Positions 922-19,453 are shown, numbered from the stretch's first letter. The stretch is DNA of 64,000 nt from Candidatus Omnitrophota bacterium (GCA_035292445.1 DATDQB010000020.1:91484-155483), one strand, 5' to 3'. Notes: generated from the sequence alone by a model not told the origin. A program made the numbers and translations.

Positions 922-950
922 TTATATTAGCCTCATTGGAGGTTTTGTTA

Positions 951-2069
951 TTAAGTTTTATAAAAAGACCTGCTCATTTCAATTACCCGTTCAACATTTT
1001 CCAATGGCTGAACCGGGCCACAGGGTAAATACATCCCCTGCTGACTAAAAGTAAGAGAATTTGGCATATCGTCTTGTTTGCCCAAATACCCTGAAATGTC
1101 TAGGCTCGGCGGAACCGGACGGACTTGAATGCCTTCTGAAAGTAAATACTTAATAAGCTCTTGTCTATTCGGGCACAAAACTTCGGCATATAGCGGAATC
1201 TCCCCTTCTGAAACATTAATAGGAATGACCTTCAAAAAAGATGAATTCTTTAAGCCTTCTGCATATCGCCCGTATACTTTCTTTAGATGAGCAACCCGTT
1301 CCTTGACACGCGCCAACTGCACCAGCCCGAATGAGGCCAACAGATCCGTGAATTTAAAATTTAATCCCATTTGGTTCCACGTGTCTGTAAAGTTATCAAC
1401 GACACCATGATTTTTCATCAATTTCATCTTTTCATACAAATCTTTCCTTTTCGTCACGACAAAACCGCCTTGCCCTGTCGATATGAGTTTGCTGACACCC
1501 AAAGAGAAACATCCAATATCCGACTGAGTCCCCAGGAATCCATCGGCATTCTTTGAATAAAAGGCTTGAGCCGCATCTTCGACCACGGACAAACCATGCT
1601 CCTTAGCGATATTTTGAATCTCCCGCATATTGACGGCCCGGCCATTAAGGTGGACAGGCATGATGACTTTTGTCTTTGCCGTGATCTTACTTCTAAGCAA
1701 TGATACATCCATAATAGGAATGTCGGCTCGGACATCAACCAGTTTGACCTTTGCCCCAACCATTAAAGCAGCATGAGCGGTGGCGATCCAGGTACGGTTA
1801 GGAACGATGACTTCATCATCCTGCCCGATACCTAAAGCCATAAGAGCAAGAAGAAGCGCAACACTGCCGCTGGTCGTCATCACGACATAGGGAATTCCCA
1901 GAGTTTCAGCCAGCTGTTTCTCAAGTTTTTGGGTCAGGGGGCCTTCACTAATATGCTCATTAAGAACAGCCTCCCTTAGACTTTGCACTTCCTCATCCGT
2001 GAAGGATGTACGCCACCAGGAAATCATCTGTCGTTGTTGATATTGAATATTGGTTTCCATTTTTTCCAT
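951..2069 (-). CDS. PLP-dependent sugar aminotransferase, DegT/DnrJ/EryC1/StrS family
   Basis: 372-aa ORF with the family-typical length and the SLGVSKLISTGQGG motif, in which Lys is the PLP-binding residue (so not the His-containing E1 dehydrase type). It lies in a sugar-modification operon. Confidence 0.85.
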   Translation of the reverse strand: MEKMETNIQYQQRQMISWWRTSFTDEEVQSLREAVLNEHISEGPLTQKLEKQLAETLGIPYVVMTTSGSVALLLALMALGIGQDDEVIVPNRTWIATAHAALMVGAKVKLVDVRADIPIMDVSLLRSKITAKTKVIMPVHLNGRAVNMREIQNIAKEHGLSVVEDAAQAFYSKNADGFLGTQSDIGCFSLGVSKLISTGQGGFVVTKRKDLYEKMKLMKNHGVVDNFTDTWNQMGLNFKFTDLLASFGLVQLARVKERVAHLKKVYGRYAEGLKNSSFLKVIPINVSEGEIPLYAEVLCPNRQELIKYLLSEGIQVRPVPPSLDISGYLGKQDDMPNSLTFSQQGMYLPCGPVQPLENVERVIEMSRSFYKT

Positions 2070-2070
2070 T

Positions 2071-3354
2071 TTAAATTGAGTTGGATGTTGCCATCATTTG
2101 CTTCGAATCCTGATTGATCACCATAAATTCCGGTTGAGGCACAATAAATTGCCCGCCATTGTTTAAATATTCTTGATGTTTTCTGATAATCGATTCCTGA
2201 TATCGCCATGCCAGGATCAAAACATAATCCGGATTTTTCTCATATAAAACATCTGAGCTCATTACCGGAAGATGGTGTCCCGGTGTATAAAGGTCGAACC
2301 TAGCCGGATTGTCATCAACGATAAGGCTCAGATAATCAGCTAATTCGAATAAATAAATCAGGGTCGTTACACCCACAGAGGCACCGTATCCTGCGATTGT
2401 TTTTCCTTCCGATTTAATTCTTTGACAAAGGGTCAGTAATTTTCTCTTTAATTCAAATACATCGTTAGAAAAACGTTCATAGGTCTCTCCTGAATTAATC
2501 CCATAATCCTTCTCATCATCGATCATTCGATCGACCGAAGAAGAAACCTTGTGAGCGGCATTCTTAACCCTCGCGAAACAACGCAATGAGCCTCCCTTTG
2601 AAGAAATACGCTCGACATCTGTCAATACCATCCCATAACGGTTAAACAGATTTTGCAAAGATAGCACGGTAAAATAAGATAAATGTTCATGATAGATCGT
2701 ATCGACAAGCCGATATTTTATAAGGTCCGTTCCATAGCCTGTTTCAAAAACAAAATATCCGGAAGGATCCAGTACCGTCTTTATTCCATTGATAAAGGCT
2801 CCTAAGTCATCTATATTGGCAAAAACATTATTGGCCGTGATAATTTTTGCGCAGCCGCGTTTCTGTTTTATCTTCTGTGCAAGAGAAGGTGAGAAATATT
2901 CCTGCCACGTTTCGATCCCCGCCTCTTGTGCATGCTGCGAGGCCTTAGGTGCGGGATCTATGCCCAAAACGCTCAGCCCCTGTTTCTTAAAAAACTTCAA
3001 CAAGGTGCCGTCGTTACTTCCGATATCAACAACCAATTGCCCTGCCAAAGGCTTAACCTTATTAATGACATCATCGGAATATTCTTCAAAGTGCTGAACA
3101 AGACCTTTTGAAATGGAGGTCTCATAAATATAATTGCCGTACAAAATGGTTGGATCAACGACTTCCATTAATTGAATAGCCGTGCATTGCCGACAAATAA
3201 ACAGATCAAGGGAATAAGATTCCTGCGATTTATTAAGATTATCGGCTGTGACATACGAATCCCCTACCGGGGTCGAGGGCATCTTCAGCGCACACTCGAG
3301 ATTCCGGCTGTTACAAATTCGACATGTCTTTCGTTTGATTACGCTGTGACCCAT
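2071..3354 (-). CDS. NDP-sugar C-methyltransferase, TylCIII-like architecture (N-terminal Zn ribbon, SAM methyltransferase domain, C-terminal C-methyltransferase domain)
   Basis: 427 aa. N-terminal Cys pairs CRIC...CRQC, a central class-I methyltransferase fold (VVDIGSNDG) and a C-terminal extension of family-typical length. Confidence 0.65.
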   Translation of the reverse strand: MGHSVIKRKTCRICNSRNLECALKMPSTPVGDSYVTADNLNKSQESYSLDLFICRQCTAIQLMEVVDPTILYGNYIYETSISKGLVQHFEEYSDDVINKVKPLAGQLVVDIGSNDGTLLKFFKKQGLSVLGIDPAPKASQHAQEAGIETWQEYFSPSLAQKIKQKRGCAKIITANNVFANIDDLGAFINGIKTVLDPSGYFVFETGYGTDLIKYRLVDTIYHEHLSYFTVLSLQNLFNRYGMVLTDVERISSKGGSLRCFARVKNAAHKVSSSVDRMIDDEKDYGINSGETYERFSNDVFELKRKLLTLCQRIKSEGKTIAGYGASVGVTTLIYLFELADYLSLIVDDNPARFDLYTPGHHLPVMSSDVLYEKNPDYVLILAWRYQESIIRKHQEYLNNGGQFIVPQPEFMVINQDSKQMMATSNSI

Positions 3355-3370
3355 TGTACGAGAATCCTTT

Positions 3371-3925
3371 TTACCTAAATACCTTTAAAGCGCTTTGTTT
3401 CTCTTTAGATTCACTCACATACTGCGTTAATTGACGCATATAGCTTGTGACCTTTTCAGCCTCTTTCTCGTCCGGAGCCCAGGGGGCAAATAGTGTTTCT
3501 TCTCGCCGAAAAGGCCCTTTGGTCGTCTCATGAAAGACCAAAAAGTCCGAATAAATCAAAAGCGTATGGTACAAAGGTCTATTTAATCGGTAATAAAAAT
3601 TTAAGTCCGATGCATAATCGCCCATCGGGATTATCTCTTGAATAACGCCTTCTTCACCAAACATAACAACATCAACCTGCCCTTCCATGACATGAAACGA
3701 TTCCGATTTTCCAAGGTGCTTGTGGGGTCGGACATAGGTGTCCTTCGTGTGAATAATCAGCATTTCATGCAACGTATCCTCCACATCCCGATGCGAACAT
3801 AAACGGATCCGTTGGCGCGGATTTCTTAAAGCCTCTTTCTTCAGGAAATCAATATCCGCGGCAGATACCCGCGTGATCTCTTCATCCGTGTAAAGAACCT
3901 CATCATTGAATTTCTTGAATTTCAT
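3371..3925 (-). CDS. cupin-fold protein (WbuC-like, possible sugar epimerase/isomerase)
   Basis: Cupin motif 1 is present as PHKHLGKSESFHVMEG (HxH-x4-E-x6-G). 184 aa, located between two C-methyltransferase genes. Confidence 0.55.
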   Translation of the reverse strand: MKFKKFNDEVLYTDEEITRVSAADIDFLKKEALRNPRQRIRLCSHRDVEDTLHEMLIIHTKDTYVRPHKHLGKSESFHVMEGQVDVVMFGEEGVIQEIIPMGDYASDLNFYYRLNRPLYHTLLIYSDFLVFHETTKGPFRREETLFAPWAPDEKEAEKVTSYMRQLTQYVSESKEKQSALKVFR

Positions 3926-5133
3926 GGCCGCGCTTCCACTGGATTTAATTGCAGGGCGTGTTTGCTTCCCGGGAAAATGGAAGCAAATGTGCCTCCCTGC
4001 TCAAGGAACGTTTGATTGAGTTTCATGACCTTTTCTTCACTCAAAGGATTCAGACTTAAAAGGCATAAATTGATTTTTTCCTTTATTAACGCTGCTGATT
4101 TATAAATAGGCAGACCACAACCGGCCATGAAAAGCCCTGTTTTGTTAGGATCGTCATCGACAAAAAATTCAATCAAGCCTCGCAGCTCGAACATGACGAC
4201 ATACGTGCAAGCCAAATGTCCTGCTCCGAAAAGGGCAATCTTTCCGGTATTTTTTCGGTAATCGCTCAAGAATTCCCTTAACTGCTTTTTGCGGACAGGA
4301 AAATTGTCGACGAACCTTTTCATGCGTAAAAATTCCGTCTGTGGAACCGATGTAAACTGATTCTTTTCTTCTCTGAGCTGACATATGCTGACCAACGAAT
4401 TTTCAAAAGGATAAGGATAATTTTCAAAACCGGCCAGGGAAAGGCCTAAATGACCGAACGTCCCTCTAAAAGTTTCAGGGGTAAAGTACAATGTATGTTC
4501 TTCCCAAAGGGTCGTGTAATCCAACAAATCAATCGCCCGCGAACAATCCGGGACTTCAAAAACGATATAGCCGTTGGGGCTTGTCAAAATTTTAAGCGCT
4601 TCCACAAATGAATTGATGTCGTACACATGCTCTAGAATATGACGCGCGATAACCACATCAAAACTTCCTTTTTTGCTTCTTATATCCCGAGCTCTCTGCG
4701 GTGTGAGCCGACCCTGAATCGTCTCGACCCCGGCCCCTTTAAAATCAATACCAAGATCATTCTTCATGTCCAAGCGGTAAATTTTTTTGTACCCTTTGTT
4801 TTCAAAACGCTGTAAGGTGGAGTCATCCTTAAAGGTAACTCCGCAAAATGTTGAACCTGTATGAATCCCGGGAAGTTTTAAAATCTTCTCCACCATGCCA
4901 TCAAGATGCGGTTCAGGCTCGTTGTACTTGATCCAGTCATAGGTTGGGACCAACTTCGGCGCCGGAACGCTTTTTGTCAGCTGAACCGTTGAGCAATGGC
5001 CGCACTGCCCCAAAGCCAGAGAGAATGTTTCTTCCTGATCATGCGCTTTCTTCTTGTAGCGATTCGAGATCGGAAAACTCCCGAAATCAATCATTTCCTT
5101 AAGCTCATTTTGGGCGCAAATACGGCAGTTCAT
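3922..5133 (-). CDS. second TylCIII-type C-methyltransferase paralog
   Basis: 403 aa. N-terminal CRIC...CGHC Zn ribbon and the same three-part architecture as 2071-3354. Its 3' end overlaps the start of the cupin gene by 4 nt. Confidence 0.6.
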   Translation of the reverse strand: MNCRICAQNELKEMIDFGSFPISNRYKKKAHDQEETFSLALGQCGHCSTVQLTKSVPAPKLVPTYDWIKYNEPEPHLDGMVEKILKLPGIHTGSTFCGVTFKDDSTLQRFENKGYKKIYRLDMKNDLGIDFKGAGVETIQGRLTPQRARDIRSKKGSFDVVIARHILEHVYDINSFVEALKILTSPNGYIVFEVPDCSRAIDLLDYTTLWEEHTLYFTPETFRGTFGHLGLSLAGFENYPYPFENSLVSICQLREEKNQFTSVPQTEFLRMKRFVDNFPVRKKQLREFLSDYRKNTGKIALFGAGHLACTYVVMFELRGLIEFFVDDDPNKTGLFMAGCGLPIYKSAALIKEKINLCLLSLNPLSEEKVMKLNQTFLEQGGTFASIFPGSKHALQLNPVEARP

Positions 5134-6011
5134 GTTTTTATCAATTCCTGTTTATGTATTTCATACATTAGACGAATACCCTCTTTCAAAGTAGTAAATG
5201 AACGATCACCAACAATTGATCTTAATCGTTCATTGTTAAAGGCGTTATCGACCTTTTCCTTGCTACGCGGCCGGGAGGTCACCTTTAATTCGCTTTGAAG
5301 CGTCCGGGAAACTTCCTTAAGAGCATCTCTGAATGAATAGCTTTTCCCGCTGGCAACATTTACCACGCCGCCGTAATCAGACGTTATGATTTTCTGAACA
5401 ATCTCGACAATGTCATCAACATAAATAAACTCCCGCAATTCGCTGCCATCGCCCCATAATGTGATTTCCTTGCCGGCGATGGCAGACTGCAAAAAGCCAC
5501 TTGGCCCATAGGCATTCGACATATCACCTGGCCCGTAAATCGTCGCCGGCCGCAAAATAACCAGCGATTTTTCGGCTGCTTTCCATAACAGCCGCTCCGA
5601 ACTGAACTTCGCCATGCCGTAATATGACCTGGGATTCACCGGCGTCTCTTCCGTGATCTGAAGGCTGTGCACATCTTCCCCATAAACCGCGGCGGAACTG
5701 AAATAAATGAACCGCTTCACCGGATTCTTTTCAAGGACACGGCAAAGATTGGTCGTCATCAGCATATTCTTTTCATACGCTTCCAAGGTATCGCCCATCT
5801 GACGTTTGATAAAAGCGCACATAATAACAGCAGTTTGACGGTCAAGGACATTGGCCAGTTGGGCAGCCTGGTCAATACGGGTCAGGTCCATCTGCGGCAA
5901 GTCGTACCCGACCACCCTTGTTTCAGAGAATCGTTGACGGAAACTCTCTTCTAAATGAGCTCCAATAAACCCACCGTTTCCTAAAATGATTATCTTTCGA
6001 ATCTCATCCAT
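5130..6011 (-). CDS. NAD(P)-dependent epimerase/dehydratase (extended SDR)
   Basis: GNGGFIG Rossmann motif and a YYGMAK catalytic Tyr/Lys pair. 293 aa. Confidence 0.75.
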   Translation of the reverse strand: MDEIRKIIILGNGGFIGAHLEESFRQRFSETRVVGYDLPQMDLTRIDQAAQLANVLDRQTAVIMCAFIKRQMGDTLEAYEKNMLMTTNLCRVLEKNPVKRFIYFSSAAVYGEDVHSLQITEETPVNPRSYYGMAKFSSERLLWKAAEKSLVILRPATIYGPGDMSNAYGPSGFLQSAIAGKEITLWGDGSELREFIYVDDIVEIVQKIITSDYGGVVNVASGKSYSFRDALKEVSRTLQSELKVTSRPRSKEKVDNAFNNERLRSIVGDRSFTTLKEGIRLMYEIHKQELIKT

Positions 6012-6014
6012 CCC

Positions 6015-7166
6015 TTAACTCTCCATGGCGATGATACACCGCCCCATTTGCCCGCTGCGCATCGTTTCAAGGGCCCGGTTGATTTCAGCTAAACGGAATT
6101 CATGGGTAATTAGGCCGTCGAGCTTTAATTTTCCTTGGCCGTACAACCGGATCAGGCGTGGAATCTCAATATGTGGGTCAACACTGCCGCCGTGCGATCC
6201 TTTTAAGATCTTCTTGAAATGCAACGGAAGCGTGTAAATCGAAACGTTATCTCCCTTTCGCGGGACGCCCACCAGAATGGTCTTCCCGTCCGCATGGGTC
6301 AACTCATAAGCCTGCTCAATGACCCTGGCATTGCCTGTTGTATCGATCACCACATCCGCCCCCTTACCGCCGACCACCTGCTGGATGCGCGCGTTCAGGT
6401 CTTTTGTTGTCTTGGCATTAAAGGTCTGGGTTGCGCCAAATTGTTTTGCCAGATCCAATTTTGAATCGTGAAGATCGATCGCAATAATCTCACCGGCTGA
6501 AACCATCTGGGCTGCCTGCACGATATTCAATCCCACGCCTCCCACCCCAAAGACAACCACTGATTGGCCGATCTTTACTTGGGCGTCGTTGTTGATGACC
6601 CCCATCGCGGTTGTCACCGCGCAGCCGAATAATGGGGCAAGCTTCAGGTCAAAATCCTTCGGGATGGCCGTAAGGCGGTTCTCCGAAACAACGGCGCGTT
6701 CATTAAAGGTCGTCACCCAGCCGGCGTTAACAGTCCTTTCCCCCCATTTGTACTTGGGCGGTTCGCACTGCAAGCCATCACTCGGCCGCCAATGCATGAC
6801 AACATGGTCGCCCACAGCGACCGTTTTGACGCCCGGTCCTACGGCTTCAACTATCCCTGAGCCTTCATGCCCCAACAGATGCGGCAGGAATTTGTCCGGC
6901 CCCTTCGCCCCTTCGATCTCATTTATTTGGGCCCCGCAGATCCCGCTATAACAGACCTTTACCAGAACTTGTCCGAAAGAAAGCTCCTTCGGCAATTCAA
7001 TGTCAGCCACCACCAGCGATTTATTCAGTTCAACCAAAATGGCTGCCCTGGTTGTCTTCACAGACTTGATATCCTGTGTCTTTAACGTTTCATTCGAAGT
7101 AGATAAACTCATAGTCCCCCGTGTAACCAAAATGTTTGTAGAGCCAGACCCATTCTTCTTTGTCAA
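6015..7166 (-). CDS. zinc-dependent alcohol dehydrogenase (MDR family)
   Basis: GHEGSGIVEAVG zinc-ADH signature and a GVGGVGL NAD-binding motif. An alternative start at Met18 (7112) would reduce the overlap with the upstream methyltransferase gene. Confidence 0.8.
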   Translation of the reverse strand: MTKKNGSGSTNILVTRGTMSLSTSNETLKTQDIKSVKTTRAAILVELNKSLVVADIELPKELSFGQVLVKVCYSGICGAQINEIEGAKGPDKFLPHLLGHEGSGIVEAVGPGVKTVAVGDHVVMHWRPSDGLQCEPPKYKWGERTVNAGWVTTFNERAVVSENRLTAIPKDFDLKLAPLFGCAVTTAMGVINNDAQVKIGQSVVVFGVGGVGLNIVQAAQMVSAGEIIAIDLHDSKLDLAKQFGATQTFNAKTTKDLNARIQQVVGGKGADVVIDTTGNARVIEQAYELTHADGKTILVGVPRKGDNVSIYTLPLHFKKILKGSHGGSVDPHIEIPRLIRLYGQGKLKLDGLITHEFRLAEINRALETMRSGQMGRCIIAMES

Positions 7167-7752
7167 AGAACGATTCGCACGTCAGGGCCCAGCACTGTAA
7201 GTTAAACAATTCTTGTTCATTTTTGTAGCTTTCCAGCATGATATATTTGTTTTTCCCGACCCGCTCGATCTCATTAATGGCTGTTTCCAATTCAAAGATG
7301 CGCAGATTATGCAAACAACCTAACGTGATCACCAGGTCAAAATGTTTGTCATCAAAAGGGTAAGGATCCTGGGCGCGGTGAATACGCAAGTACTTTCGAA
7401 TTTCTTGTGGTGCATCAGCTATGCCGTGCCTAGAGATATCAAACCCCACCACTTCTGAATCAGGCAGTAATTTCTTCAATTCAAAGAGAAGATGCGCTTT
7501 GCCGCAACCGACATCGAGAATTTTAGCGTCCGCTTTTAGGTTGTAATAATCGATAAGTTTTTGCGCGACAACACTCCATCGCCCGTCATATTTATAACCG
7601 CCATAACCATAGCGCCGGTCGCCGTCCCAGTAATCAAACTCATACTCTTTGGCCTTGAGCATGCAATGGACCTTCTCATCAACCATGCGGTCGATGTATT
7701 TGCGCGGCGTCCTTTTATGCAGCGGCGTTACAAAATCTTGTAATGAACCCAT
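7090..7752 (-). CDS. class I SAM-dependent methyltransferase
   Basis: ILDVGCGKAHLL SAM-binding motif I. 220 aa. Confidence 0.7.
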   Translation of the reverse strand: MGSLQDFVTPLHKRTPRKYIDRMVDEKVHCMLKAKEYEFDYWDGDRRYGYGGYKYDGRWSVVAQKLIDYYNLKADAKILDVGCGKAHLLFELKKLLPDSEVVGFDISRHGIADAPQEIRKYLRIHRAQDPYPFDDKHFDLVITLGCLHNLRIFELETAINEIERVGKNKYIMLESYKNEQELFNLQCWALTCESFFDKEEWVWLYKHFGYTGDYEFIYFE

Positions 7753-7785
7753 TTTTGAAAACTCCTTGTAAACTGCCTAATGAAA

Positions 7786-8447: not shown

Positions 8448-8451
8448 ATCA

Positions 8452-9447: not shown

Positions 9448-10255
9448 GTAAACTTTCTATATCCTCATCTGAGATCTTGCTCTTATGGTGCCACTGCATA
9501 TTATGTTCGGCAATTCCGACGCCTTTTCCCTTAACGGTATGGCAAACAATGGCTGTGGGCTTGCCCGCTTCATAAGGCACATCTTTGAGGGCTTTCTTTA
9601 ATTGCGCCACGTTATGCCCGTCTACCTCACGAACACTAAATCCGAACGCTTTCCACTTATCGGCAAAAGGTTCCATATCCAGCACTTCAAACGTTGAGCC
9701 GTAAGACTGATGCTTGTTATAATCGACAATCACCGTCAAATTATCCAGCTTATGCTTTGCCGCACAAAGGGCCGCTTCCCAAACAGAACCTTCATTACAC
9801 TCCCCATCACCGACCACAACAAAGACACGATGATCGGCTTTCTCGAACTTGGCATTGATGGCCATGCCGACACCAATGGATAATCCATGCCCCAGGCTTC
9901 CCGTTGAGGCCTCCACCCCGGGCACTTTATGTTCCGGGTGCCCGCCCAAAATACCGTCGGACTTGCAAAACTTCCAAAGCTCTTCCTCGGCAATAAAACC
10001 TTTTTCCGCCAACAGGACATATAAAGCGATGCAGCCATGCCCTTTGCTTAAGATACACCGGTCCCTTTCCGGCCATTTCGGGTTTTTGGCATCATATTTT
10101 AAGATATCGTCATAAAGGACGCGCAAGATCTCAACGAGGGAAAATGATGCCCCCACATGCCCGCGCCGCCCGGCCTGCAATGTTTTGATGATCATCTCGC
10201 GCAGATGCTTTGAACGATCATCCAGCCCGATCTTACTGTCTTTGAAATCATTCAT
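9416..10255 (-). CDS. transketolase, N-terminal thiamine-diphosphate-binding section of a split transketolase
   Basis: GDGECNEGSVWEA ThDP-binding motif. 279 aa. Confidence 0.85.
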   Translation of the reverse strand: MNDFKDSKIGLDDRSKHLREMIIKTLQAGRRGHVGASFSLVEILRVLYDDILKYDAKNPKWPERDRCILSKGHGCIALYVLLAEKGFIAEEELWKFCKSDGILGGHPEHKVPGVEASTGSLGHGLSIGVGMAINAKFEKADHRVFVVVGDGECNEGSVWEAALCAAKHKLDNLTVIVDYNKHQSYGSTFEVLDMEPFADKWKAFGFSVREVDGHNVAQLKKALKDVPYEAGKPTAIVCHTVKGKGVGIAEHNMQWHHKSKISDEDIESLLEGLKEYAHA

Positions 10256-12058
10256 TTACGCCACCTTGACTTTGTTGAGCATATTCTTGGCTTTTTGCAA
10301 TTGCATGGCCAATACATCAAGCTTGTTAAGCTCATAAGCATTAGAAAAATGCCGGCGCTGCCACTCGCCCACAACAAATTCGTTAAGGAAGATCAAGCAC
10401 CACTTTAAGGCGAATAACGGATATAACGCATCGGCCCTCTCTTGCTGTTTCTTATCAAATTGAAAGGCCTTGGCAAACTCATCTCTAAAAGCCCGCTTTA
10501 GATCATCCTTGAGTTCCATCGCGGGATGAAGCTGAAAATCGGCGATGGTCTTGGCCGGATCATCCCAGCCGAAGTATTCAAAGTCCAAGAATATGATCCC
10601 CTTATCAGGCGTGCGCAAGGCATTATGAAAACCGAAATCCGAAGGGCTTAGCGTTCTTTCTTTATCCAGAAGAACGTTTTCCAATTTGCCCTCTAATCTT
10701 TTCGCAATGCCATCTAACAGCGGCCCAAACTCATTTTTCAAGAACTGCTGGCAATCCTTATAGATCTTTTCTTTCTCATCCGCATCATATAAACGCCCCA
10801 GCCTCATCCGAATATTGGCGATGATATCCTTGGCCGAGAAAAACGCCTCCGATGCCGGGGCGAAATGCCGGCTTTCATCTGCTGCCGTCAAATCCTTCAG
10901 CCGTTTCAAGAAACCGACGGCGAATTTGATATCTTTGGCCGCGATCGTTTCCGGATGAAACGCTTCTCCTTCGATATATTCATAAAGAGCAAACCCTTCT
11001 TTTTCATTCTTAGACAGCGGTTGCGGCACACAACCGATCCCGTTCTTCCTCAAAAAGTTCAAACCTTTATATTCGGTATTTAACCGGTCCCGCTGATCCT
11101 GAGGGTGCCGGAAATAAAACTTGGCGATATACTTTTCCTTTGCGCCTTTAAGGAAGAATACCTGGCTGTTGGCCCCGCCTTTGATCTCTGATACCTCTTG
11201 GATATCATCCGTCAATAGAGCTTGCGCCAGTTCTTTTACCTGCTTTGTGTCACGATGCCGTTCTAGCAGTGGAGCCCTATGGACAAAGCCTGTGGTAGCA
11301 TTTTGTTCTACCCTGCTTCGCTCCAATGTTTCCACGTTGGAGCTTCGCAGGGTTATCCGCCGCGAAAACATTTCGGGCTTTGCCCCTTGGCGAACATCCG
11401 CCGAAGCCCCGACAAGTTCGGGGCGAAGGCGGATAAAGATGTATTCATTGATCTCTCTCCATGAGCCCAAGACCTTGACATCAGCTAAATTCATTCCCTT
11501 GTCCAACGGTGAAAAAAGGACCTTTCGAACGCTTTTGGGAAAAGACGGTTCCATGAACGTCTCCTCCAGATCATCTACAAAATAACTGCACCCTAACGCC
11601 CGGATGCGCTCGATTTTTTCCTGCCTTGTCGATTCGAAATAAACCTGGGATGGATCTAAACCCAACCCGTTCTTCTCAAAGAAACGATTTTCCTTCATCC
11701 AAGCTAAAGCTGTCTTTTGAAGATCAATACCATCTTTATCCATCGAAGCAAATCGGGTCTTATGGCTGATGATGGCGAGCTTAATACCTTGCCTTTGACA
11801 TTGACCGAAAAACTCTGCCACGCCGTCCATCAGCTGGGCCTGTTCCATTCCCCTGCCATAAATATAGGCCTGTAACTTCTGCCACTTCGCCTCGCCATCT
11901 GGCAGTTGGCGTACCGCATCGCGTATCGCTTTTTTGTTTTGCCCCATCTTTTTGGGAATATACCCGTTGCCAAGGGCCGTGCTGTATAAAACCCTGTCAT
12001 AGCTGACGATCGTGTTATCGAAATCGACGCCAAGGATCATATGTTTACGATACTCCAC
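10256..12058 (-). CDS. bifunctional HAD-superfamily phosphatase (N-terminal) and APH/choline-kinase-like kinase (C-terminal)
   Basis: The N-terminus carries the HAD motif I GVDFDNTIV, later KLAIISHKT and YFVDDLEE. The C-terminus carries the kinase motifs DFGFHNAL and FLDFEYFGWDDP. The two domains are joined by a low-complexity linker (aa ~208-251) encoded by a short repeat. Confidence 0.65.
   Translation of the reverse strand: MEYRKHMILGVDFDNTIVSYDRVLYSTALGNGYIPKKMGQNKKAIRDAVRQLPDGEAKWQKLQAYIYGRGMEQAQLMDGVAEFFGQCQRQGIKLAIISHKTRFASMDKDGIDLQKTALAWMKENRFFEKNGLGLDPSQVYFESTRQEKIERIRALGCSYFVDDLEETFMEPSFPKSVRKVLFSPLDKGMNLADVKVLGSWREINEYIFIRLRPELVGASADVRQGAKPEMFSRRITLRSSNVETLERSRVEQNATTGFVHRAPLLERHRDTKQVKELAQALLTDDIQEVSEIKGGANSQVFFLKGAKEKYIAKFYFRHPQDQRDRLNTEYKGLNFLRKNGIGCVPQPLSKNEKEGFALYEYIEGEAFHPETIAAKDIKFAVGFLKRLKDLTAADESRHFAPASEAFFSAKDIIANIRMRLGRLYDADEKEKIYKDCQQFLKNEFGPLLDGIAKRLEGKLENVLLDKERTLSPSDFGFHNALRTPDKGIIFLDFEYFGWDDPAKTIADFQLHPAMELKDDLKRAFRDEFAKAFQFDKKQQERADALYPLFALKWCLIFLNEFVVGEWQRRHFSNAYELNKLDVLAMQLQKAKNMLNKVKVA
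11307..11435. repeat. repeat family 1, copy A (about 129 nt, inside a CDS, in frame)
   Basis: The core TACCCTGCTTCGCTCCAATGTTTCCACGTTGGAGCTTCGCAGGGTTATCCGC ... ATCCGCCGAAGC ... GCGAAGGCGGA is shared with 19334-19453. It contains the hairpin CCCTGC...GCAGGG. Confidence 0.6.
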
Positions 12059-13070
12059 TGATCAACGGTTGCGTTTTCAACATTTTGATATTGTAATAAC
12101 GGATATTGTTCAACGGGTCTTCAAATTTATTGGCCTGAAAGGCTTTGATCAGATCGCGTACCGCGTCTTCGATCGTGTGCCTTGGGACAAAGTTCAATTC
12201 CCTCTTGATCTTTTCGGAGGAGATCCGGTACGAGCGGATATCATCCGAAGGTGTTGTCTCAATGGCGATCTTTTTCTCGGGGCACTTCTCTTCAACTATC
12301 CTTTTAACGATATCGGCAATATCGGATATGGATCTGTTCTGATAACCGACGTTATAGGCTTGGCCGGCGATCCTTTCCTTCGGCATATCCAAGAGCATCA
12401 CATACAGATCCGTTATATCCTCGATATGGATATTGGGCCGCTCCTGCTTGCCGCCGAAGACCATGATCTTATTATTGTTATAGGCATAGTTCGTTAAAAT
12501 GTTGACGGATAGATCAAAACGCTGCCGGGGGGAAAACCCACAAACCGTGGCCGGGCGGATGATGCAGGTCGTAAAATCGCCAGCCTGGTACTTTAAAAGG
12601 ATCGGCTCACAAAGCCCCTTATACTTGTTGTAGTCGGTAATAGGAAGAAAGGGATGGTCTTCGGTAACTTCCGGCGCATCGCTGATCCCATACACGCTGC
12701 AGGTCGAAGCGTAAATAAAGCGTTTAACGCCGCTGTCACGGCTGATCTGAACCAGGGGCTCGAAACACTCATAATTCACCTTCCTGCTTAGAGCGGGGTC
12801 CAGATCAAAGGTCGGATCATTGGAAATGCAGGCCAAGTGAATAACAACGTCACAGCCTGCCAAGGCCTTTTTAAGGAGCGACTTATCACAAATATCGCCT
12901 TTGATCTCTTCAAGGTTGGATTTATCCTCGATCTCATCAAAGACATCCTCACCGTAGGTATATAGATCAATTACCTTTACGCGATAGCCTTTCTTGAGGA
13001 GCTTCGGGACCAAAACAGCACCGACATAACCGGCCCCACCCGTGACAAGAATAGTCCTGAAATTACTCAT
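12045..13070 (-). CDS. NAD-dependent epimerase/dehydratase (extended SDR; candidate NDP-heptose 4,6-dehydratase or reductase)
   Basis: GGAGYVG Rossmann motif and a YNKYK catalytic pair. 341 aa. Confidence 0.75.
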   Translation of the reverse strand: MSNFRTILVTGGAGYVGAVLVPKLLKKGYRVKVIDLYTYGEDVFDEIEDKSNLEEIKGDICDKSLLKKALAGCDVVIHLACISNDPTFDLDPALSRKVNYECFEPLVQISRDSGVKRFIYASTCSVYGISDAPEVTEDHPFLPITDYNKYKGLCEPILLKYQAGDFTTCIIRPATVCGFSPRQRFDLSVNILTNYAYNNNKIMVFGGKQERPNIHIEDITDLYVMLLDMPKERIAGQAYNVGYQNRSISDIADIVKRIVEEKCPEKKIAIETTPSDDIRSYRISSEKIKRELNFVPRHTIEDAVRDLIKAFQANKFEDPLNNIRYYNIKMLKTQPLISGVS

Positions 13071-13668
13071 GGATAACGGCCCTTTCTTTTAACTCAAGTT
13101 TTATGCTGTGGATCACATCGATCAATGAGTGGATAAGAAAATGGTGAAGGCATTCCACATGTCCGTAATGCGATGTGGGCACATAAAAGTTGATGTCCCC
13201 TTTACTTCTTAATGAATTATCCGTCTTAAATCCGGAGAAAGTTATGACGCGAAGTCCTTTTTCTTTGGCGGCTTGGACGCCTCGAAGGATATTCTCGGAC
13301 TGGCCGGAGCTGCTGACCGCGCAAAGGATATCATTGGATTCGGCGAACATCTCGATAGGCTTGGCGAAGACATTTTCGTAGCCTTCATCATTGCTGATGC
13401 AGGTCAGGAGGCTGCTGTCGTTAAAGGCGAGCGCTTTGATGCCGGCGTTCTTCCAGAAATCCGTTGCCATATGGCTGGCGATGGCGGCACTGCCCCCATT
13501 GCCGATAAAAAGGAGCTTCCCCTCGGCGTTACTTTGTTCCATGATCATATTGATGGCCTTCTCGAGGGCTTCCTCAACGAGAACGGATGATCCCTCGGTG
13601 GTGGTGGCCTGGATCTTATGAAACAGCTCCTGCACTTTCTGGCGGTTCTGTTTGATTTTATCGATCAT
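13063..13668 (-). CDS. gmhA: sedoheptulose-7-phosphate isomerase (SIS domain)
   Basis: LLFIGNGGSAAIASHMATDF matches the GmhA SIS signature. 201 aa. Confidence 0.8.
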   Translation of the reverse strand: MIDKIKQNRQKVQELFHKIQATTTEGSSVLVEEALEKAINMIMEQSNAEGKLLFIGNGGSAAIASHMATDFWKNAGIKALAFNDSSLLTCISNDEGYENVFAKPIEMFAESNDILCAVSSSGQSENILRGVQAAKEKGLRVITFSGFKTDNSLRSKGDINFYVPTSHYGHVECLHHFLIHSLIDVIHSIKLELKERAVIHE

Positions 13669-15197
13669 TTTAGTAACCTCGTTATGAATTTGATTAGGTC
13701 AACGGAATCTACGGAATCGCGGTTGCAGACGATCTGGCACGCCAACGAACCGACCGCATTGCCGATAAACGAAACCACTTCCTGAGGTAAACCGGCCGCA
13801 AAACACGGCGCGATAAAAGCGAAAAAGGCGTCCCCCGCGCCTATGGGATCGATGACCTTATCGGAGAATGCCGGCGTTTCATGGAACCCATGGGCCTTGG
13901 AATAGCAAATGGAGCCTGCAGGCCCCCGCGTGGCAATGATGTGCTCACACCCGATCTGTTCGTATATCTTTTTAGAAAGATCGCGCACATCGCCGAATCT
14001 GTCATGGGCGGCGTAACGCAGCTCCATTTCATCGATACAGACACAATTGGCATGCCGGTATTTGGTCACCAAATTAAATCCCGCATTGGCGCTGTTAGTC
14101 TGGACGTTGAGGGCCAGGTATTTGGACTTTTCGCAAAGGATCTGGCGTATCCTTTCCGTTAAGAATCCGTGCCCGAAATCAGATACGACAACCAGATCAT
14201 ATTTATCGATCACTTTAGTTAACTGTTTTATGATCCTTGTTTCCTCTCTTTTGGGTATATCCGTGTCATTCATATAGCAGATCTGGAATTGCTTACGTAA
14301 GGTTTCATTGCTCACAAAACGCCTTTTGACCGTCGTGCCAGTATCATTGCGATAATAAAATAAGGGGTTTATTTTTTTGCTTAACTTACTTTCGATAAAA
14401 TCTTGGTAGGTATTCTCAGCGCCTAAGACCGTTATTAGATCCACGTTCTCGCAAACGCTGGCCACATTATTGGCCGTCGCCAATGCCCCTCCCGCGAAGA
14501 TCTCCTCCGACTTGTATTTATTGACGATCACTTCCGCTTTAGAAGAGCGGCCCATTGGAGTGCAATAATGATATTCGTCAATGATGGCATCGCCGATGAC
14601 CAGGACTTTAAGCTTATTAAGCCCTTTAATTGCGTTGACGATATAATCAATTGTGTAGCGTTTTGAAATAGCTTTCAAATATTTCACGGTGCGCGGGGGG
14701 AAGGTATCTAATTGGCTATTGATAATGCTGGAAGAGCTGAAGGTAATATCATCTGTAAAGGCGAGGCGGCCTCCAATGGATTTGACCGCCTCCTCTTCTT
14801 CGTAGATCATTCCCGTGACATCTTTTTCTTTCTGTTTATACTCGCTTCCCTTAACATAAACATCGGGTTTTAATGCTTTGATGAAATCCGTTGCCGTCGG
14901 GGCATCGATAATACAGACATAATCCGTTATTTGAAGGGATGCGAGGGTCTCGGCCCTTAAATTCTCATTGAAGAAAGGCCTGCCGGGCCCTCTTTTGACA
15001 TGCTGGTCGCTTGTCGTGCTGACAACCAGGATATCCCCTTCTTTTTTGGCCAGATTAAAATGACGGATGTGGCCCAAATGGACGATGTCAAAGACGCCGT
15101 GGCACAGGACGACTTCCTTGCCCTTGCCTTTTAGACCGGCAACGATCTTAGATAATTCGTCAATTGACTTAATCTTATCCAATGTTGTATCGATCAT
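13665..15197 (-). CDS. bifunctional heptose-1-phosphate nucleotidyltransferase (N-terminal) and heptose-7-phosphate PfkB kinase (C-terminal); HldE-like with swapped domain order
   Basis: N-terminal cytidylyltransferase-fold motif CHGVFDIVHLGHIRH (HxGH). The kinase domain begins at KVLVIGDAIIDEYHYC and ends with the PfkB signature DPIGAGDAFFA. Confidence 0.75.
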   Translation of the reverse strand: MIDTTLDKIKSIDELSKIVAGLKGKGKEVVLCHGVFDIVHLGHIRHFNLAKKEGDILVVSTTSDQHVKRGPGRPFFNENLRAETLASLQITDYVCIIDAPTATDFIKALKPDVYVKGSEYKQKEKDVTGMIYEEEEAVKSIGGRLAFTDDITFSSSSIINSQLDTFPPRTVKYLKAISKRYTIDYIVNAIKGLNKLKVLVIGDAIIDEYHYCTPMGRSSKAEVIVNKYKSEEIFAGGALATANNVASVCENVDLITVLGAENTYQDFIESKLSKKINPLFYYRNDTGTTVKRRFVSNETLRKQFQICYMNDTDIPKREETRIIKQLTKVIDKYDLVVVSDFGHGFLTERIRQILCEKSKYLALNVQTNSANAGFNLVTKYRHANCVCIDEMELRYAAHDRFGDVRDLSKKIYEQIGCEHIIATRGPAGSICYSKAHGFHETPAFSDKVIDPIGAGDAFFAFIAPCFAAGLPQEVVSFIGNAVGSLACQIVCNRDSVDSVDLIKFITRLLK

Positions 15198-15200
15198 GGA

Positions 15201-16190
15201 TCAACCCCTTACAAGATATTTAAACCAATCCTCTGTGGCTTTTTCGATGGATTCCGGCGTCCAAACAGGCGCGCTGCGCCAATAATCGATGTTTTCCAAA
15301 ATTTTGCGGACCCCTTCTTCAAAAGATACCTTCGGCCGCCATCCGAGACGATCGCAGATCTTTTTATTGTCGGCCCAGGTACAATCCGGCTCACCCGGAC
15401 GTTTTGGGATGTAAATTTTCTCCCCTCCCAACAAGCTGACAAGTTTATTGACGCTCTGCGGATTACCCGTGCCCACATTGAATACTTCGTTCTCAATATT
15501 TGAGTTAGCGGCCTTGACAAACGCCTCTGCTACGTCCGTTACATATATAAAATCCCGTGTTTGTTCGCCGTCACCGACAACGGTAAACGGCCTCCCATTA
15601 AGTTTTTGGGCCAAAAAGACCCCGAAAACAGCCCCATAAGTTCCTGACGTTCTTGAACGCGTCCCGTAGACATTGAATAACCGCAACGATATGACCGGCA
15701 TCTTATAGATCTGCCCCCAATGCAAAGCAGTCTCCTCCCCCAGATATTTTGTAAGGGCATATGGATATTGAGGATTGATCGGCGCTGTTTCGGCGGTAGG
15801 ATAGAAATCCTGCGGCGGGATGCCATAACAGGAAGAAGACGCGGTATAGATGAACCGCTTGATATGGTGCCGGCGTGAGGCCTCCAGTACATTCATGGCC
15901 CCTAATACGTTAGAGGTGTAATATTCCCTTGGGTTAACGATGGAAGGCACAATATCCGCCAATGCGGCCAAATGGAACACCTGATCTTTCCCCTTAAAGG
16001 CCGGTTCGATGGCCGTGTAATCCCTGATATCAGCTTCGATAAAAGTGATCCGTTCTTTGCAGTGCTCGAGATTGCTTGATCTGCCTGTCGAACAGTTATC
16101 GATGACCGTCACTTTATGGCCATCGGCCAATAAGCGGTCAACCAGATGACTGCCGATGAATCCCGCTCCTCCTGTTACGACAACGTTCAT
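15201..16190 (-). CDS. NAD-dependent epimerase/dehydratase (UDP-sugar epimerase/decarboxylase-like extended SDR)
   Basis: VVVTGGAGFIGSH motif and a YALTKY catalytic pair. 329 aa. Confidence 0.8.
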   Translation of the reverse strand: MNVVVTGGAGFIGSHLVDRLLADGHKVTVIDNCSTGRSSNLEHCKERITFIEADIRDYTAIEPAFKGKDQVFHLAALADIVPSIVNPREYYTSNVLGAMNVLEASRRHHIKRFIYTASSSCYGIPPQDFYPTAETAPINPQYPYALTKYLGEETALHWGQIYKMPVISLRLFNVYGTRSRTSGTYGAVFGVFLAQKLNGRPFTVVGDGEQTRDFIYVTDVAEAFVKAANSNIENEVFNVGTGNPQSVNKLVSLLGGEKIYIPKRPGEPDCTWADNKKICDRLGWRPKVSFEEGVRKILENIDYWRSAPVWTPESIEKATEDWFKYLVRG

Positions 16191-16735
16191 GCTTTCGCCC
16201 CAATAAAAGTGTGGTTTCTGGAAATTTCGGTAATGAGGTCCACGAACCTGTTGCCGTTCAACTGATCCAGACCGACATTTTCTTTGCCAATGAGAAGAAC
16301 GCCGTTGATACCTTCCGAAGGCAAAGTATTTAAGACACTGATGTGGCCATCGGGAAGTTTCAATTCATGGAACGCCTTTTCAATAAGAATGGTCAGATCG
16401 CTCTCGCTGTACACATAAAACTCCCGAATGCCTTCTTTATAAAGGTTCAGAATGACTTCCTTCACATTGTCTTTGATCATGCCGATATGGTTGATCGTGT
16501 TGATCGTATACTTGACTGATTTGCGCATCTTTTCGGAAAAGCCTTGGGGGGTGAGGAGGTATTGGACCTTGCGCTTGTTGAGCTGTATGATGCGGATATA
16601 ACCTTTGGTAATGAGCCGGCGGATCAGCATGTTGACCATCCCTAAGGACAGATCCATTTTTTGGGATAGATCGCGCTGATTGGAATCCAGCTCTTTACCT
16701 AGAATATTTAGTAACTCAAATTCGCGTTCATCCAT
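16187..16735 (-). CDS. winged-helix (MarR/TrmB-like) transcriptional regulator, first gene of the sugar operon
   Basis: N-terminal HTH NQRDLSQKMDLSLGMVNMLIRRLITKGYI. 182 aa. Its start overlaps the downstream SDR gene. Confidence 0.5.
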   Translation of the reverse strand: MDEREFELLNILGKELDSNQRDLSQKMDLSLGMVNMLIRRLITKGYIRIIQLNKRKVQYLLTPQGFSEKMRKSVKYTINTINHIGMIKDNVKEVILNLYKEGIREFYVYSESDLTILIEKAFHELKLPDGHISVLNTLPSEGINGVLLIGKENVGLDQLNGNRFVDLITEISRNHTFIGAKA

Positions 16736-16937
16736 ATTAGCTGCTTATTGGTGATGTAACTCGTTGATATCAATGATTTTTTCGATTAGCATAAATTAGG
16801 CGGAAGATTGTTCAATCTATGAACGTTCATATTCTGAACATATTATAAGCCCATATTCCGGTCAGTCAAGCACAAATTATAGTAACGGGATCACAAAATT
16901 GGGGAGGGTTTTGATTCGACGAGAAGCCGGTGCCAAC

Positions 16938-17306: not shown

Positions 17307-17318
17307 GTATTTTCCCCT

Positions 17319-19322: not shown

Positions 19323-19333
19323 TGATTCTCCAT

Positions 19334-19453
19334 TTTACCCTGCTTCGCTCCAATGTTTTCACGTTGGAGTTTCGCAGGGTTTTCCGCTGATGTGTGCTAA
19401 AATCATCAATCCGCCGAAGCTAAACGCAAAAGCAATTTAGCGAAGGCGGAAAA
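19334..19453. repeat. repeat family 1, copy B (intergenic, between the riboswitch terminator and the btuB start)
   Basis: TACCCTGCTTCGCTCCAATGTTTTCACGTTGGAGTTTCGCAGGGTTTTCCGC ... ATCCGCCGAAGC ... GCGAAGGCGGA. Identity to copy A is high over the two core blocks, with a variable centre. Confidence 0.6.

Follow-up and report, generated by a model that had tools for sequence, protein, structure and literature searches.

A candidate route to a modified higher-carbon nucleotide sugar in a conserved Omnitrophota gene cassette with a remodelled split transketolase-like enzyme

The left end of a 64,000-nucleotide stretch of DNA from a Candidatus Omnitrophota bacterium (GCA_035292445.1, DATDQB010000020.1, positions 91484-155483; hereafter the window) carries a row of 17 consecutive open reading frames (ORFs), all on the minus strand from position 16735 to 1, in which relatives of the ADP-heptose enzymes stand together with a split transketolase-like enzyme, a phosphatase-kinase fusion and an assortment of sugar-modifying enzymes. 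We consider it somewhat more probable than the contrary that the product of this locus is a higher-carbon (heptose-like) sugar that is nucleotide-activated, C-methylated, aminated and N-acylated, and that its genes provide an activation layer, a "C2 module" and a tailoring tail. An earlier reading of the same DNA (the original prediction) had placed in positions 951-16735 a pathway for a tailored nucleotide-heptose having its own supply of sedoheptulose-7-phosphate. While the co-linear row proved real and nearly all domain assignments within it were verified, five features required correction: the number of extended short-chain dehydrogenases/reductases (SDRs), the nature of the HAD phosphatase, the domain order of the HldE-like protein, the presence of an inserted gene, and the extent of the row.

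More tentatively, and at less than even confidence, we propose that the cassette represents a way, not described before, of making a non-standard higher sugar (a modified heptose, a C8 or C9 sugar, or a two-carbon-branched sugar), in which a phosphate-independent enzyme of the transketolase family would form the committed carbon-carbon bond, coupled to a fused phosphatase-kinase, and activation would be performed by paralogs of the ADP-heptose enzymes; such a route would be common to Omnitrophota, Nitrospirota, some cyanobacteria and DPANN archaea. Domains were assigned by Pfam and NCBIfam scans of the ORFs in the row, using the curated (equivalog) NCBIfam cut-offs as thresholds, and the locus was compared gene by gene over 29 GTDB loci. 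Every substrate assignment offered below rests on homology.

A proposed C2 module and its distribution

Adjacent genes encode the two halves of the transketolase-like enzyme: an N-subunit that binds thiamine diphosphate (ThDP) (9416..10255; Transketolase_N, E 1.5e-48) and a C-subunit comprising Transket_pyr and Transketolase_C domains (8452..9423; Pfam). Their scores with the NCBIfam transketolase models (274.7 and 201.5 bits, respectively, against a cut-off of 488) are weak evidence, since these models are full-length and split subunits fall below the cut-off for that reason alone. Individual residues were compared with those of human transketolase and of the housekeeping split transketolase 6yaj. 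The N-subunit keeps His37, His77, His110, His258, Asp155 and Asn185 (human numbering), and the C-subunit keeps the cofactor-activating Glu366 as well as Arg318 (Arg358 in E. coli), while the acceptor pocket of the C-subunit is remodelled. Among the 120 closest homologs of the C-subunit, drawn from several phyla, His at position 416/461 (human/E. coli numbering, as in what follows) is replaced by Gly in 120/120 and Asp at 424/469 by Leu, again in 120/120; Arg at 474/520 has become Lys in all but one (119/120), and Ser at 345/385 has given way across the clade to Asp, Gly, Glu, Asn or Lys (Asp in the window). In the N-subunit, Arg at 101/91, which pairs with Asp469, is replaced by Cys, Gly, Ser or Ala (Cys in the window). 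Housekeeping enzyme 6yaj, by comparison, keeps the phosphate-binding His and Ser and the Asp that serves the C2 hydroxyl. In E. coli transketolase, Ser385 contacts the substrate phosphate, and Ser385, Asp469 and Arg520 are positions that were mutated to shift the enzyme from phospho-sugar acceptors (PMC5073344).

Because the pocket for the sugar phosphate and C2 hydroxyl is lost and the donor and cofactor residues are kept, the ordinary reaction of ribose-5-phosphate with xylulose-5-phosphate would not be run by this pair, and we conclude that it is, as predicted from these residues, a catalytically competent ThDP-dependent C2-transferase with a different partner substrate. The original prediction had correctly recognized the two genes of a split transketolase; the dedicated supply of sedoheptulose-7-phosphate that it built on them is not supported, given the replacement of the pocket His, Ser, Asp and Arg, and formation of that compound from ribose-5-phosphate by the transketolase-like enzyme appears unlikely.

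The gene directly ahead of this pair (10256..12040) encodes a 594-residue protein in which a HAD domain (residues 1-208) is joined through a disordered linker to a kinase of the APH/choline-kinase fold (residues 259-594; APH, E 8.6e-14). The HAD domain bears a DFDNT motif and produced weak matches only, to HAD_2 and Hydrolase; in the kinase, the catalytic Asp/Asn and a DFEY motif are invariant. No NCBIfam family, the GmhB models included, matched the protein, and a phmmer search against the PDB returned no relative of the fusion. An AlphaFold model (predicted local distance difference test, pLDDT, 88) displays the two domains and the disordered linker. Fold searching with this model placed the kinase nearest LicA choline kinase, APH(9), APH(2''), MtnK and NahK, that is, within the generic choline-kinase/APH fold. 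Modelled alone (pLDDT 94), the HAD domain has a helical cap and the subfamily-I fold, its nearest structural relatives being deoxyribonucleotidase-like/HAD-IA proteins, CbbY and phosphoglycolate phosphatases; none of the first 50 fold matches was a GmhB. GmhB itself has the capless HAD-IIIA fold, and GmhB-like proteins scoring 146-164 bits occur in a Microcoleus cyanobacterium (L036) and a Woesearchaeota archaeon (L038) besides the HAD of the HAD-APH protein. Lacking a GmhB profile match, having a capped HAD-IA fold, and accompanied in L036 and L038 by separate GmhB-like genes, the HAD domain was rejected as a candidate for the GmhB step. What had been taken for a GmhB-like phosphatase is instead a capped subfamily-I HAD forming the N-terminal third of a kinase fusion, the kinase portion having been missed.

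Two further enzymes would complete the conserved C2 module that we delineate here, which thus comprises the HAD-APH protein, the split ThDP-dependent transketolase-like enzyme, a class-I S-adenosylmethionine (SAM) methyltransferase (MT1) and a Zn-dependent alcohol dehydrogenase (Zn-ADH); profile matches confirm the original assignment of the latter two. MT1 (7090..7752; 220 residues; Pfam) always lies beside the transketolase-like genes and is 60-79% identical among Omnitrophota loci and 50-72% in other phyla; phmmer against the PDB found no informative relative. Zn-ADH (6015..7112; Pfam/NCBIfam) is class III/class P-like and, with the ATG start chosen in the gene call on the contig, has 365 residues; its identity is 47-67% with the counterparts from Nitrospiraceae, Woesearchaeota and triple-fusion loci. 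The last of these are loci in which HAD, APH and Transketolase_N are fused in a single protein of ~856 residues (P0304 and P0349; L039 6844-9417 and L040 3203-5776), with MT1 and Zn-ADH divergently transcribed beside it. Elsewhere, the transketolase N-subunit gene directly follows the APH gene in every locus that has one. On the strength of this adjacency and these fusions, we regard phosphatase, kinase and transketolase-like enzyme as one functional unit.

The row is not a chance assembly, because its synteny is kept in the 29 GTDB loci compared. A core of 11 genes is shared by Omnitrophota, Nitrospiraceae and Woesearchaeota, and in part by the Microcoleus cyanobacterium. In Omnitrophota the head is kept, comprising a regulator, an extended SDR (SDR1), a nucleotidyltransferase-PfkB fusion and usually a SIS-domain isomerase and a second SDR (SDR2), each described below. 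The middle of the locus exists in two versions. Type A, to which the window belongs, has HAD and APH, separate or fused, a transketolase-like pair at ~65% identity, MT1 and Zn-ADH; type B combines MT1 with a transketolase-like pair at 40-53% identity, and radical-SAM genes replace HAD/APH and Zn-ADH. The type-B Omnitrophota loci are L005/L011, L014, L019, L020, L026 and L027, and their radical-SAM/SPASM genes sit where type A has SDR2/HAD-APH and Zn-ADH. The tail is variable, with C-methyltransferases, cupin, DegT, radical-SAM and B12-radical-SAM enzymes, and glycosyltransferases adjoin some relatives of the cassette. Beyond Omnitrophota, the type-A core is found at 40-70% identity in a Nitrospiraceae metagenome-assembled genome (L037) and in the Woesearchaeota archaeon (L038); the Microcoleus strain (L036), which is cultured, has most of the core, SIS and Zn-ADH not being seen in the stretch examined. 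HAD-APH fusions also occur in Deltaproteobacteria, Verrucomicrobia, Chloroflexota, Elusimicrobia and Binataceae. In the literature on transketolase/GmhA/heptose, Omnitrophota heptose, branched-chain sugars and O-antigen clusters we found no described cluster of this kind. The part comprising transketolase and phosphatase-kinase is a widespread, uncharacterised enzyme module.

Candidate activation enzymes and the proposed route

Two genes of the head encode relatives of the enzymes that isomerize and activate heptose phosphates. The first product is a GmhA-like SIS ketose-phosphate isomerase of 201 residues (13063..13668; SIS_2), which scores 111.5 bits with gmhA (TIGR00441; cut-off 209) and 107-116 bits with the other GmhA models (cut-offs 265-276). 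Aligned to E. coli GmhA, it keeps the phosphate loop (SSSGQS) and the metal-site histidines His61 and His180, shows conservative replacements of Glu65 by Asp and of Gln172 by Glu, and places Arg69 and Asp169 in gaps. The second (13665..15197) is an HldE-like fusion of an N-terminal nucleotidyltransferase (PF01467, residues 32-158) and a C-terminal PfkB kinase (PF00294, residues 197-488), so that both HldE domains occur in one polypeptide in the order opposite to HldE, transferase first and kinase second. It scores 107 bits with rfaE_dom_II (cut-off 181.5), 130.6 with rfaE_dom_I (345) and 175 with HldE (521). This architecture is shared by more than 120 cluster representatives, which are 66-76% identical; the same two domains occur in 120/120 closest homologs, and the reversed order was confirmed in L005, L006, L036 and L037.

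For the SIS, PfkB and nucleotidyltransferase domains the top models are gmhA, rfaE_dom_I and rfaE_dom_II, respectively, with glycerol-3-phosphate cytidylyltransferase, ribokinase and DiaA far lower; an assignment of these proteins to 3-deoxy-D-manno-octulosonate (KDO) or glycerol-phosphate pathways, which would have undone the original prediction, is thus not what the profiles favour. The nucleotidyltransferase domain also matches ethanolamine-phosphate and choline-phosphate cytidylyltransferases. Relative to the curated cut-offs, these GmhA/HldE-like proteins reach about one third to one half of the score, and the HldE-like one departs in domain order as well.

The Woesearchaeota contig L038 bears on what these low scores mean. 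It encodes a canonical PfkB (387 bits against the cut-off of 345), a canonical nucleotidyltransferase (195 against 181.5) and a GmhB-like gene, and in addition a divergent PfkB (119.7 bits) and a divergent nucleotidyltransferase (106.8 bits) to which a GmhB-like HAD-IIIA domain is fused. Aligned with the divergent PfkB copy, the PfkB domain of the window shows 37.5% identity and 221 bits, compared with 25% and 75 bits for the canonical copy. Because L038 holds both sets and the window enzyme matches the divergent one, the GmhA/HldE-like enzymes of the window probably form a paralogous clade with the same type of chemistry and a different substrate. As paralogs, and not orthologs, of the ADP-heptose enzymes, they would therefore probably have as their substrate not plain D-glycero-D-manno-heptose but a modified heptose or something close to it. 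That the nucleotidyltransferase-PfkB protein is simply a deep-branching HldE ortholog was also considered, an interpretation weakened by the co-occurrence of canonical and divergent forms in L038. The presence at L038 2364-7540 of a complete canonical ADP-heptose gene set beside the divergent paralogous set is of interest in itself, a heptose pathway being unexpected in a (DPANN) archaeon, which has no lipopolysaccharide (LPS).

Three extended SDRs lie in the row, and not the four originally counted in 951-16735. SDR1 (15201..16190; ASSSCYG and YxxxK motifs) is of the GalE/WbpP type, with UDP-hexose 4-epimerases, WbgU and UXS as best PDB matches, and is probably a C4 epimerase or oxidoreductase. 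It is near-universal, together with the nucleotidyltransferase-PfkB protein, in Omnitrophota, where the two are 61-76% identical across loci; in Nitrospiraceae and Woesearchaeota loci SDR1 is 55-58% identical. SDR2 (12045..13070; ASTCSVYG) has as its closest PDB entries, far ahead of the next, 6vo6/6vo8 (E 1.1e-43), which we take, by the depositor's name for the entry, to be Cj1427, the GDP-heptose C4-dehydrogenase of Campylobacter jejuni. SDR3 (5130..6011; FSSAAVYG; Pfam/NCBIfam) is a short extended SDR of 293 residues and of the reductase/epimerase type. In 4,6-dehydratases an Asp or Glu directly follows the catalytic Ser/Thr (TDE, TSE and TDK motifs); read directly from the sequence, this acid is absent from SDR1, SDR2 and SDR3, and the deoxy feature originally predicted finds no support in any of the three. 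Cj1427 oxidises C4 of GDP-heptose without deoxygenation (PMC10680097). The fourth extended SDR (20273-21346) lies outside the row, behind a TonB-receptor/DUF4346/DUF6580 block; its STNKVYG motif is like that of CDP-tyvelose/paratose 2-epimerases and, by eye, its YxxxK reads FGASK, with Tyr replaced by Phe. CDP-paratose 2-epimerase is listed as mobile cargo in Omnitrophota (preprint 10.64898/2026.05.20.726742).

From these homologies, an order of activation and tailoring (SIS, PfkB, GmhB, transferase, SDR2, then modifications) can be drawn up that we consider quite likely. The SIS protein would convert a ketose phosphate to an aldose phosphate, which the PfkB domain would phosphorylate at the anomeric position to an aldose-1,omega-bisphosphate; a GmhB-type phosphatase encoded outside the window would remove the distal phosphate, and the nucleotidyltransferase domain would convert the resulting aldose-1-phosphate to a nucleoside diphosphate (NDP)-sugar. 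The remainder of the 64-kb window contains no GmhB, HldD, heptosyltransferase or second transketolase. The Cj1427-like SDR2 would then oxidise C4, without deoxygenation, to give a 4-keto sugar, SDR1 would epimerise, and C-methylation, epimerisation/reduction, transamination and N-acylation would follow. These last steps would fall to the strain-variable tail, comprising SDR3, two C-methyltransferases, a cupin and DegT and, past the window edge, an acyl-ACP (acyl carrier protein) module, an ABC exporter and an MptE-like putative transferase.

How the C2 module feeds this sequence is less secure. In the scheme that we tentatively put forward, which may well be wrong, the HAD domain would remove a phosphate to release an aldose or aldehyde, which the transketolase-like enzyme would lengthen by a two-carbon ketol unit; the ketose so formed would be phosphorylated anew by the APH kinase and, methylated by MT1 or redox-adjusted by Zn-ADH, would serve the paralogous GmhA/HldE-like enzymes as their non-standard substrate. 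We favour this sequence of dephosphorylation, extension and rephosphorylation because it leaves no conserved enzyme without a function and accounts for the missing phosphate pocket, for the fusions and for the activation enzymes being paralogs.

Several observations weigh against it. To our knowledge, no APH-family kinase phosphorylates the terminal hydroxyl of a ketose. Arg318 and Lys474 of the transketolase-like enzyme could still bind phosphate. Type-B loci carry transketolase-like genes, MT1, SIS and nucleotidyltransferase-PfkB without HAD-APH or Zn-ADH, and the scheme therefore cannot be general; several other loci have nucleotidyltransferase-PfkB with SDR1/SDR2 and no transketolase within 10 kb. 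Finally, the divergent clade may also be the ordinary heptose supply in Omnitrophota: the very high conservation there of nucleotidyltransferase-PfkB and SDR1 fits ordinary ADP-heptose enzymes with a core LPS function, and LPS heptosyltransferase (II) genes are reported in Omnitrophota cassettes (10.64898/2026.05.20.726742).

An alternative that we regard as unlikely, yet the strongest of those considered, would have the transketolase-like enzyme act late, adding a two-carbon (glycolyl or dihydroxyethyl) unit to a carbonyl of the NDP-sugar. The acceptor would be the C4 ketone produced by SDR2, or a terminal aldehyde produced by the class-III-like Zn-ADH, and the product a branched or chain-extended (C9) sugar, whose new ketone Zn-ADH or SDR3 would reduce and which MT1 would methylate. 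The replacement of His416, Asp424 and Arg101 by Gly, Leu and Cys/Gly is expected to make the pocket wider and more hydrophobic, which could suit a bulky acceptor devoid of phosphate, and SDR2 is nearest to a C4 dehydrogenase that yields a 4-keto heptose without deoxygenation. The transketolase-MT1 pair, moreover, is retained in both type A and type B, in the latter of which the radical-SAM/SPASM genes could be alternative oxidoreductases. ThDP-dependent two-carbon branching of NDP-4-keto sugars has precedents in YerE and in the E1-like pairs of avilamycin and aldgamycin biosynthesis. Yet we know of no member of the transketolase family proper that adds to a ketone or an NDP-sugar, the C-methyltransferases and DegT likewise need a 4-keto (or 3-keto) group, and late addition leaves without a role the HAD-APH protein, which in some organisms is fused to the transketolase N-subunit itself.

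Improbable in our estimation is the model of the original prediction, in which sedoheptulose-7-phosphate is supplied by a dedicated transketolase, the HAD domain performs the GmhB step, and ordinary heptose enzymes lead to a tailored NDP-D-glycero-D-manno-heptose. It can claim the top profile matches, all of them to heptose-pathway models, and the same conservation and heptosyltransferase reports that count against our scheme; small-genome lineages may also lack a complete pentose-phosphate pathway, and the phosphatase-kinase-transketolase fusion fits steps 1, 3 and 4 of the heptose route as well. It conflicts with the replacement, in 120/120 homologs, of the phosphate His/Ser and the Asp for the C2 hydroxyl, with the capped fold and absent GmhB match of a HAD that has GmhB-like genes alongside it in L036 and L038, and with the joint presence of canonical and divergent kinase/nucleotidyltransferase sets in L038; PfkB and APH kinases, furthermore, would be redundant.

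Hardly credible, lastly, is that HAD-APH, transketolase, Zn-ADH and MT1 make a small phosphorylated ketol or polyol that is activated by the cytidylyltransferase (cf. CDP-glycerol, CDP-ribitol and CDP-ethanolamine) and added as a phospho-substituent, or that the genes form an aminoglycoside-like secondary-metabolite cluster instead of a surface-glycan locus: the likeness of the kinase to LicA choline kinase and aminoglycoside kinases, the cross-matches of the nucleotidyltransferase to ethanolamine- and choline-phosphate enzymes, and the ABC exporter, radical-SAM and C-methyltransferase genes typical of natural-product clusters are outweighed by the score of 107 bits with rfaE_dom_II against 32 bits with glycerol-3-phosphate cytidylyltransferase, by fusion to an HldE-type PfkB and not to APH, by a regulator at the head of exopolysaccharide (EPS)-associated MarR type, and by the glycosyltransferases beside relatives.

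Layout, tailoring genes and neighbouring regions

The region from 16735 to 1 is the first ~17 kb of one single-strand sugar-biosynthesis locus of more than 26 kb; the row is not confined to 951-16735, as first thought, and continues through a MaoC-SDR gene for at least 10 kb beyond the left window edge on the identical metagenome contigs L001 and L002. The encoded proteins match those of a Candidatus Omnitrophota metagenome-assembled genome at 100% identity. Successive ORFs overlap by 4-23 nt or are separated by 0-30 nt, except at two gaps of ~93 nt that flank one inserted gene, and all ORFs of the row but one have a strong family match (Pfam/NCBIfam). The G+C content of the row is like that of the rest of the window; we considered, and set aside, a horizontally acquired island, as the composition of the row is not distinct from that of the remaining window.

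As originally proposed, the row opens with a winged-helix regulator of the MarR/EPS-associated type (16187..16735; 182 residues; HTH_24, E 1.7e-8), scoring 54.5 bits with MarR_EPS (TIGR04176), below the cut-off of 88; its homologs head the same cluster in other Omnitrophota. A candidate sigma-70-like promoter on the same strand (TTGACT-16-TATAAT, 16842..16869), with 11/12 matches the best site within 1-17500, lies ~105 nt upstream of this first gene. The scan for promoters and terminators is weak evidence, its site counts in the region being no higher than in shuffles; the lack of internal intergenic terminators and the one good promoter-like site upstream weakly suggest a single transcription unit.

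The inserted gene (7845..8357; Pfam/NCBIfam), between those of the transketolase C-subunit and MT1, encodes a four-helix-bundle protein of the 23S_rRNA_IVP family and is absent from all other loci compared. The arms of an imperfect inverted repeat of 57 nt (7783-7839 and 8391-8447, 77% complementary), composed of AATAACCAA-like units, enclose this gene, which is probably a lineage-specific insertion and not part of the pathway. It resembles an inserted cassette whose flanks could fold into a long stem in a polycistronic RNA, cf. rRNA intervening sequences.

Downstream of SDR3 the tail begins with C-methyltransferase a (3922..5133), which matches PF08421 (53.5 bits) and, in part, PF08484 (53.9 bits, profile positions 42-160), and in which the motif I region reads FCGVTFKDDS, so that its SAM motif looks degenerate by eye. 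A WbuC-family cupin follows (3371..3925; TIGR04366, 137 bits against a cut-off of 42), and then C-methyltransferase b (2071..3354), of the TylCIII/MtmC/TcaB9 type, with PF08421 (62 bits), PF13489 and PF08484 (162 bits). The latter is a full-length NDP-sugar 3-C-methyltransferase homolog (MtmC 4rv9, E 9e-81; TcaB9, E 2e-58) with the SAM motif DIGSNDG. Methyltransf_13 and Methyltransf_14 are thus found in both proteins, in agreement with the two TylCIII-type C-methyltransferases first proposed. The DegT/PseC-type sugar aminotransferase (951..2069; DegT, E 1.1e-80, 272 bits) has the pyridoxal phosphate (PLP) lysine (FSLGVSKLI), where the dehydratase branch of the family has His, and scores 212 bits with PseC, below the cut-off of 423; the cupin score and the DegT match with its PLP lysine bear out both original assignments.

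At the window edge, the predicted fusion of a MaoC dehydratase and a ketoreductase (KR)-type SDR is likewise present (1..920, edge-cut; 395 residues in full) and is the first gene of an N-acyl module. Beyond the edge, L001 and L002 encode the full MaoC-KR protein, a 589-residue HAD/FkbH-like protein, an ACP and a GNAT-like protein, followed by a radical-SAM/SPASM protein, a 411-residue protein, an ABC exporter, an MptE-like protein and a B12-radical-SAM enzyme. The FkbH-like/ACP/GNAT/MaoC-KR module strengthens the N-acylation that had been raised as a possibility, and a C-methylated, aminated and N-acylated product is a reasonable prediction from the gene content.

Other regions of the window and of related loci were noted in passing. 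Directly upstream of the row and on the same strand, 16938-20217 encodes a DUF4346 pterin-binding-like protein, a TonB-dependent receptor (only the Plug domain being detected) and a DUF6580 membrane protein, and possibly forms an uptake unit that has no connection with the sugar genes. A Mla-type lipid transport system (MlaD, ABC ATPase and MlaE) with an ABC-2 exporter pair (26707-31310) is consistent with a diderm envelope. A Nar/Nxr-type molybdoenzyme locus (47038-59892) includes a molybdopterin subunit of 1155 residues (53241-56708), a 4Fe-4S subunit (51684-52964), a NarJ-like chaperone (50951-51853) and an EB_dh plus dihaem cytochrome c subunit (56737-58431), adjoined by MoaA, a MOSC-MobA fusion and NnrS; it suggests respiration of nitrogen oxides or related oxyanions in this Omnitrophota genome. 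Two radical-SAM activase-like genes flank an anaerobic ribonucleotide reductase NrdD with an ATP-cone (60588-62708) in the region 59905-63540. In another Omnitrophota genome (L006/L007, positions 1-9000), a second sugar pathway precedes the conserved head, with an HpcH/HpaI aldolase, a methyltransferase, a CTP_transf_3 protein of CMP-sugar synthetase type, GFO_IDH_MocA, a second SIS protein, a 2-hydroxyacid dehydrogenase, an SDR and a DHQ-synthase-like protein. This pathway may lead to a keto-acid or carbasugar activated with CMP.

Relation to known pathways and significance

The locus recalls several characterized systems in parts and departs from each. Two routes offer precedents for the logic of the C2 module. 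In the lincosamide GDP-octose pathway (LmbR/LmbN/LmbP/LmbK/LmbO), a ketose made by carbon-carbon transfer is processed by a GmhA-like isomerase, a kinase, a phosphatase and a nucleotidyltransferase, and in the formation of 7-deoxysedoheptulose from 5-deoxyribose a phosphatase frees the pentose and transketolase extends it. The lincomycin route depends on a transaldolase together with a GHMP kinase and a GDP-transferase, and 7-deoxysedoheptulose is made by a promiscuous housekeeping transketolase; neither route has the HAD-APH fusion or this transketolase clade. With the pathway to ADP-L-glycero-beta-D-manno-heptose of the Gram-negative LPS core (GmhA, HldE, GmhB and HldD), the locus shares the roles of SIS, PfkB and cytidylyltransferase-fold enzymes, and differs in its scores below cut-off, its reversed domain order, the lack of a GmhB- or HldD-type gene in the row, and its paralogous position. 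C-methyltransferase b shares the Zn-ribbon, Rossmann and C-terminal domains of the 3-C-methyltransferases TylCIII, TcaB9, MtmC and KijD1; the known members of that type use dTDP-4-keto-2,6- or 6-deoxyhexoses, whereas the substrate here, with no dehydratase signature, is likely a 4-keto heptose-like sugar.

Modification of capsular GDP-heptose in C. jejuni (Cj1427, C3/C5 epimerases and C4 reductases; PMC10680097) resembles the present locus in its SDR, further SDRs and cupin and in the logic of oxidising an NDP-heptose at C4 before tailoring; it differs in GHMP kinase/GDP activation and has no C-methyltransferases, transketolase-like enzyme, HAD-APH protein or N-acyl module. In septacidin and hygromycin B biosynthesis (PMC9978623), an HldE-/GmhA-like pair leads to ADP-heptose, which is oxidised, transaminated to a 4-amino-heptose and N-acylated, but these are clusters for actinomycete natural products, without a transketolase-like/HAD-APH module or TylCIII-type C-methylation. 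The split transketolase of Carboxydothermus hydrogenoformans (6yaj/6yak; PMC7661550) has the same two-gene division and folds (C-subunit, E 6e-56), from which the window enzyme is set apart by its rebuilt acceptor pocket, its setting in a sugar-tailoring cassette, and homologs that are sometimes fused to the phosphatase-kinase. As a plausible lead, the locus could combine the logic of the ADP-heptose pathway with C4 oxidation and amination of the Campylobacter or septacidin type and C-methylation of the macrolide type.

If the proposed route is true, it would introduce into nucleotide-sugar biosynthesis a new step that builds the carbon skeleton, performed by a specialised transketolase clade, and would set apart a paralogous GmhA/HldE(/GmhB) group that acts on another substrate. 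The cassette can be searched for by invariant signatures, namely Gly and Leu at the positions of transketolase His461 and Asp469 and the HAD-APH(-TktN) fusions, and the labels "Transketolase", "HldE" and "GmhA" in such clusters should not be taken to denote functions in central metabolism or the LPS core. It occurs in lineages without cultured representatives (Omnitrophota and Woesearchaeota). Because the polysaccharide cassettes of Omnitrophota are reported to be hypervariable and laterally exchanged (preprint 10.64898/2026.05.20.726742), the sugar product may matter for interactions with hosts or prey and for recognition by phages.

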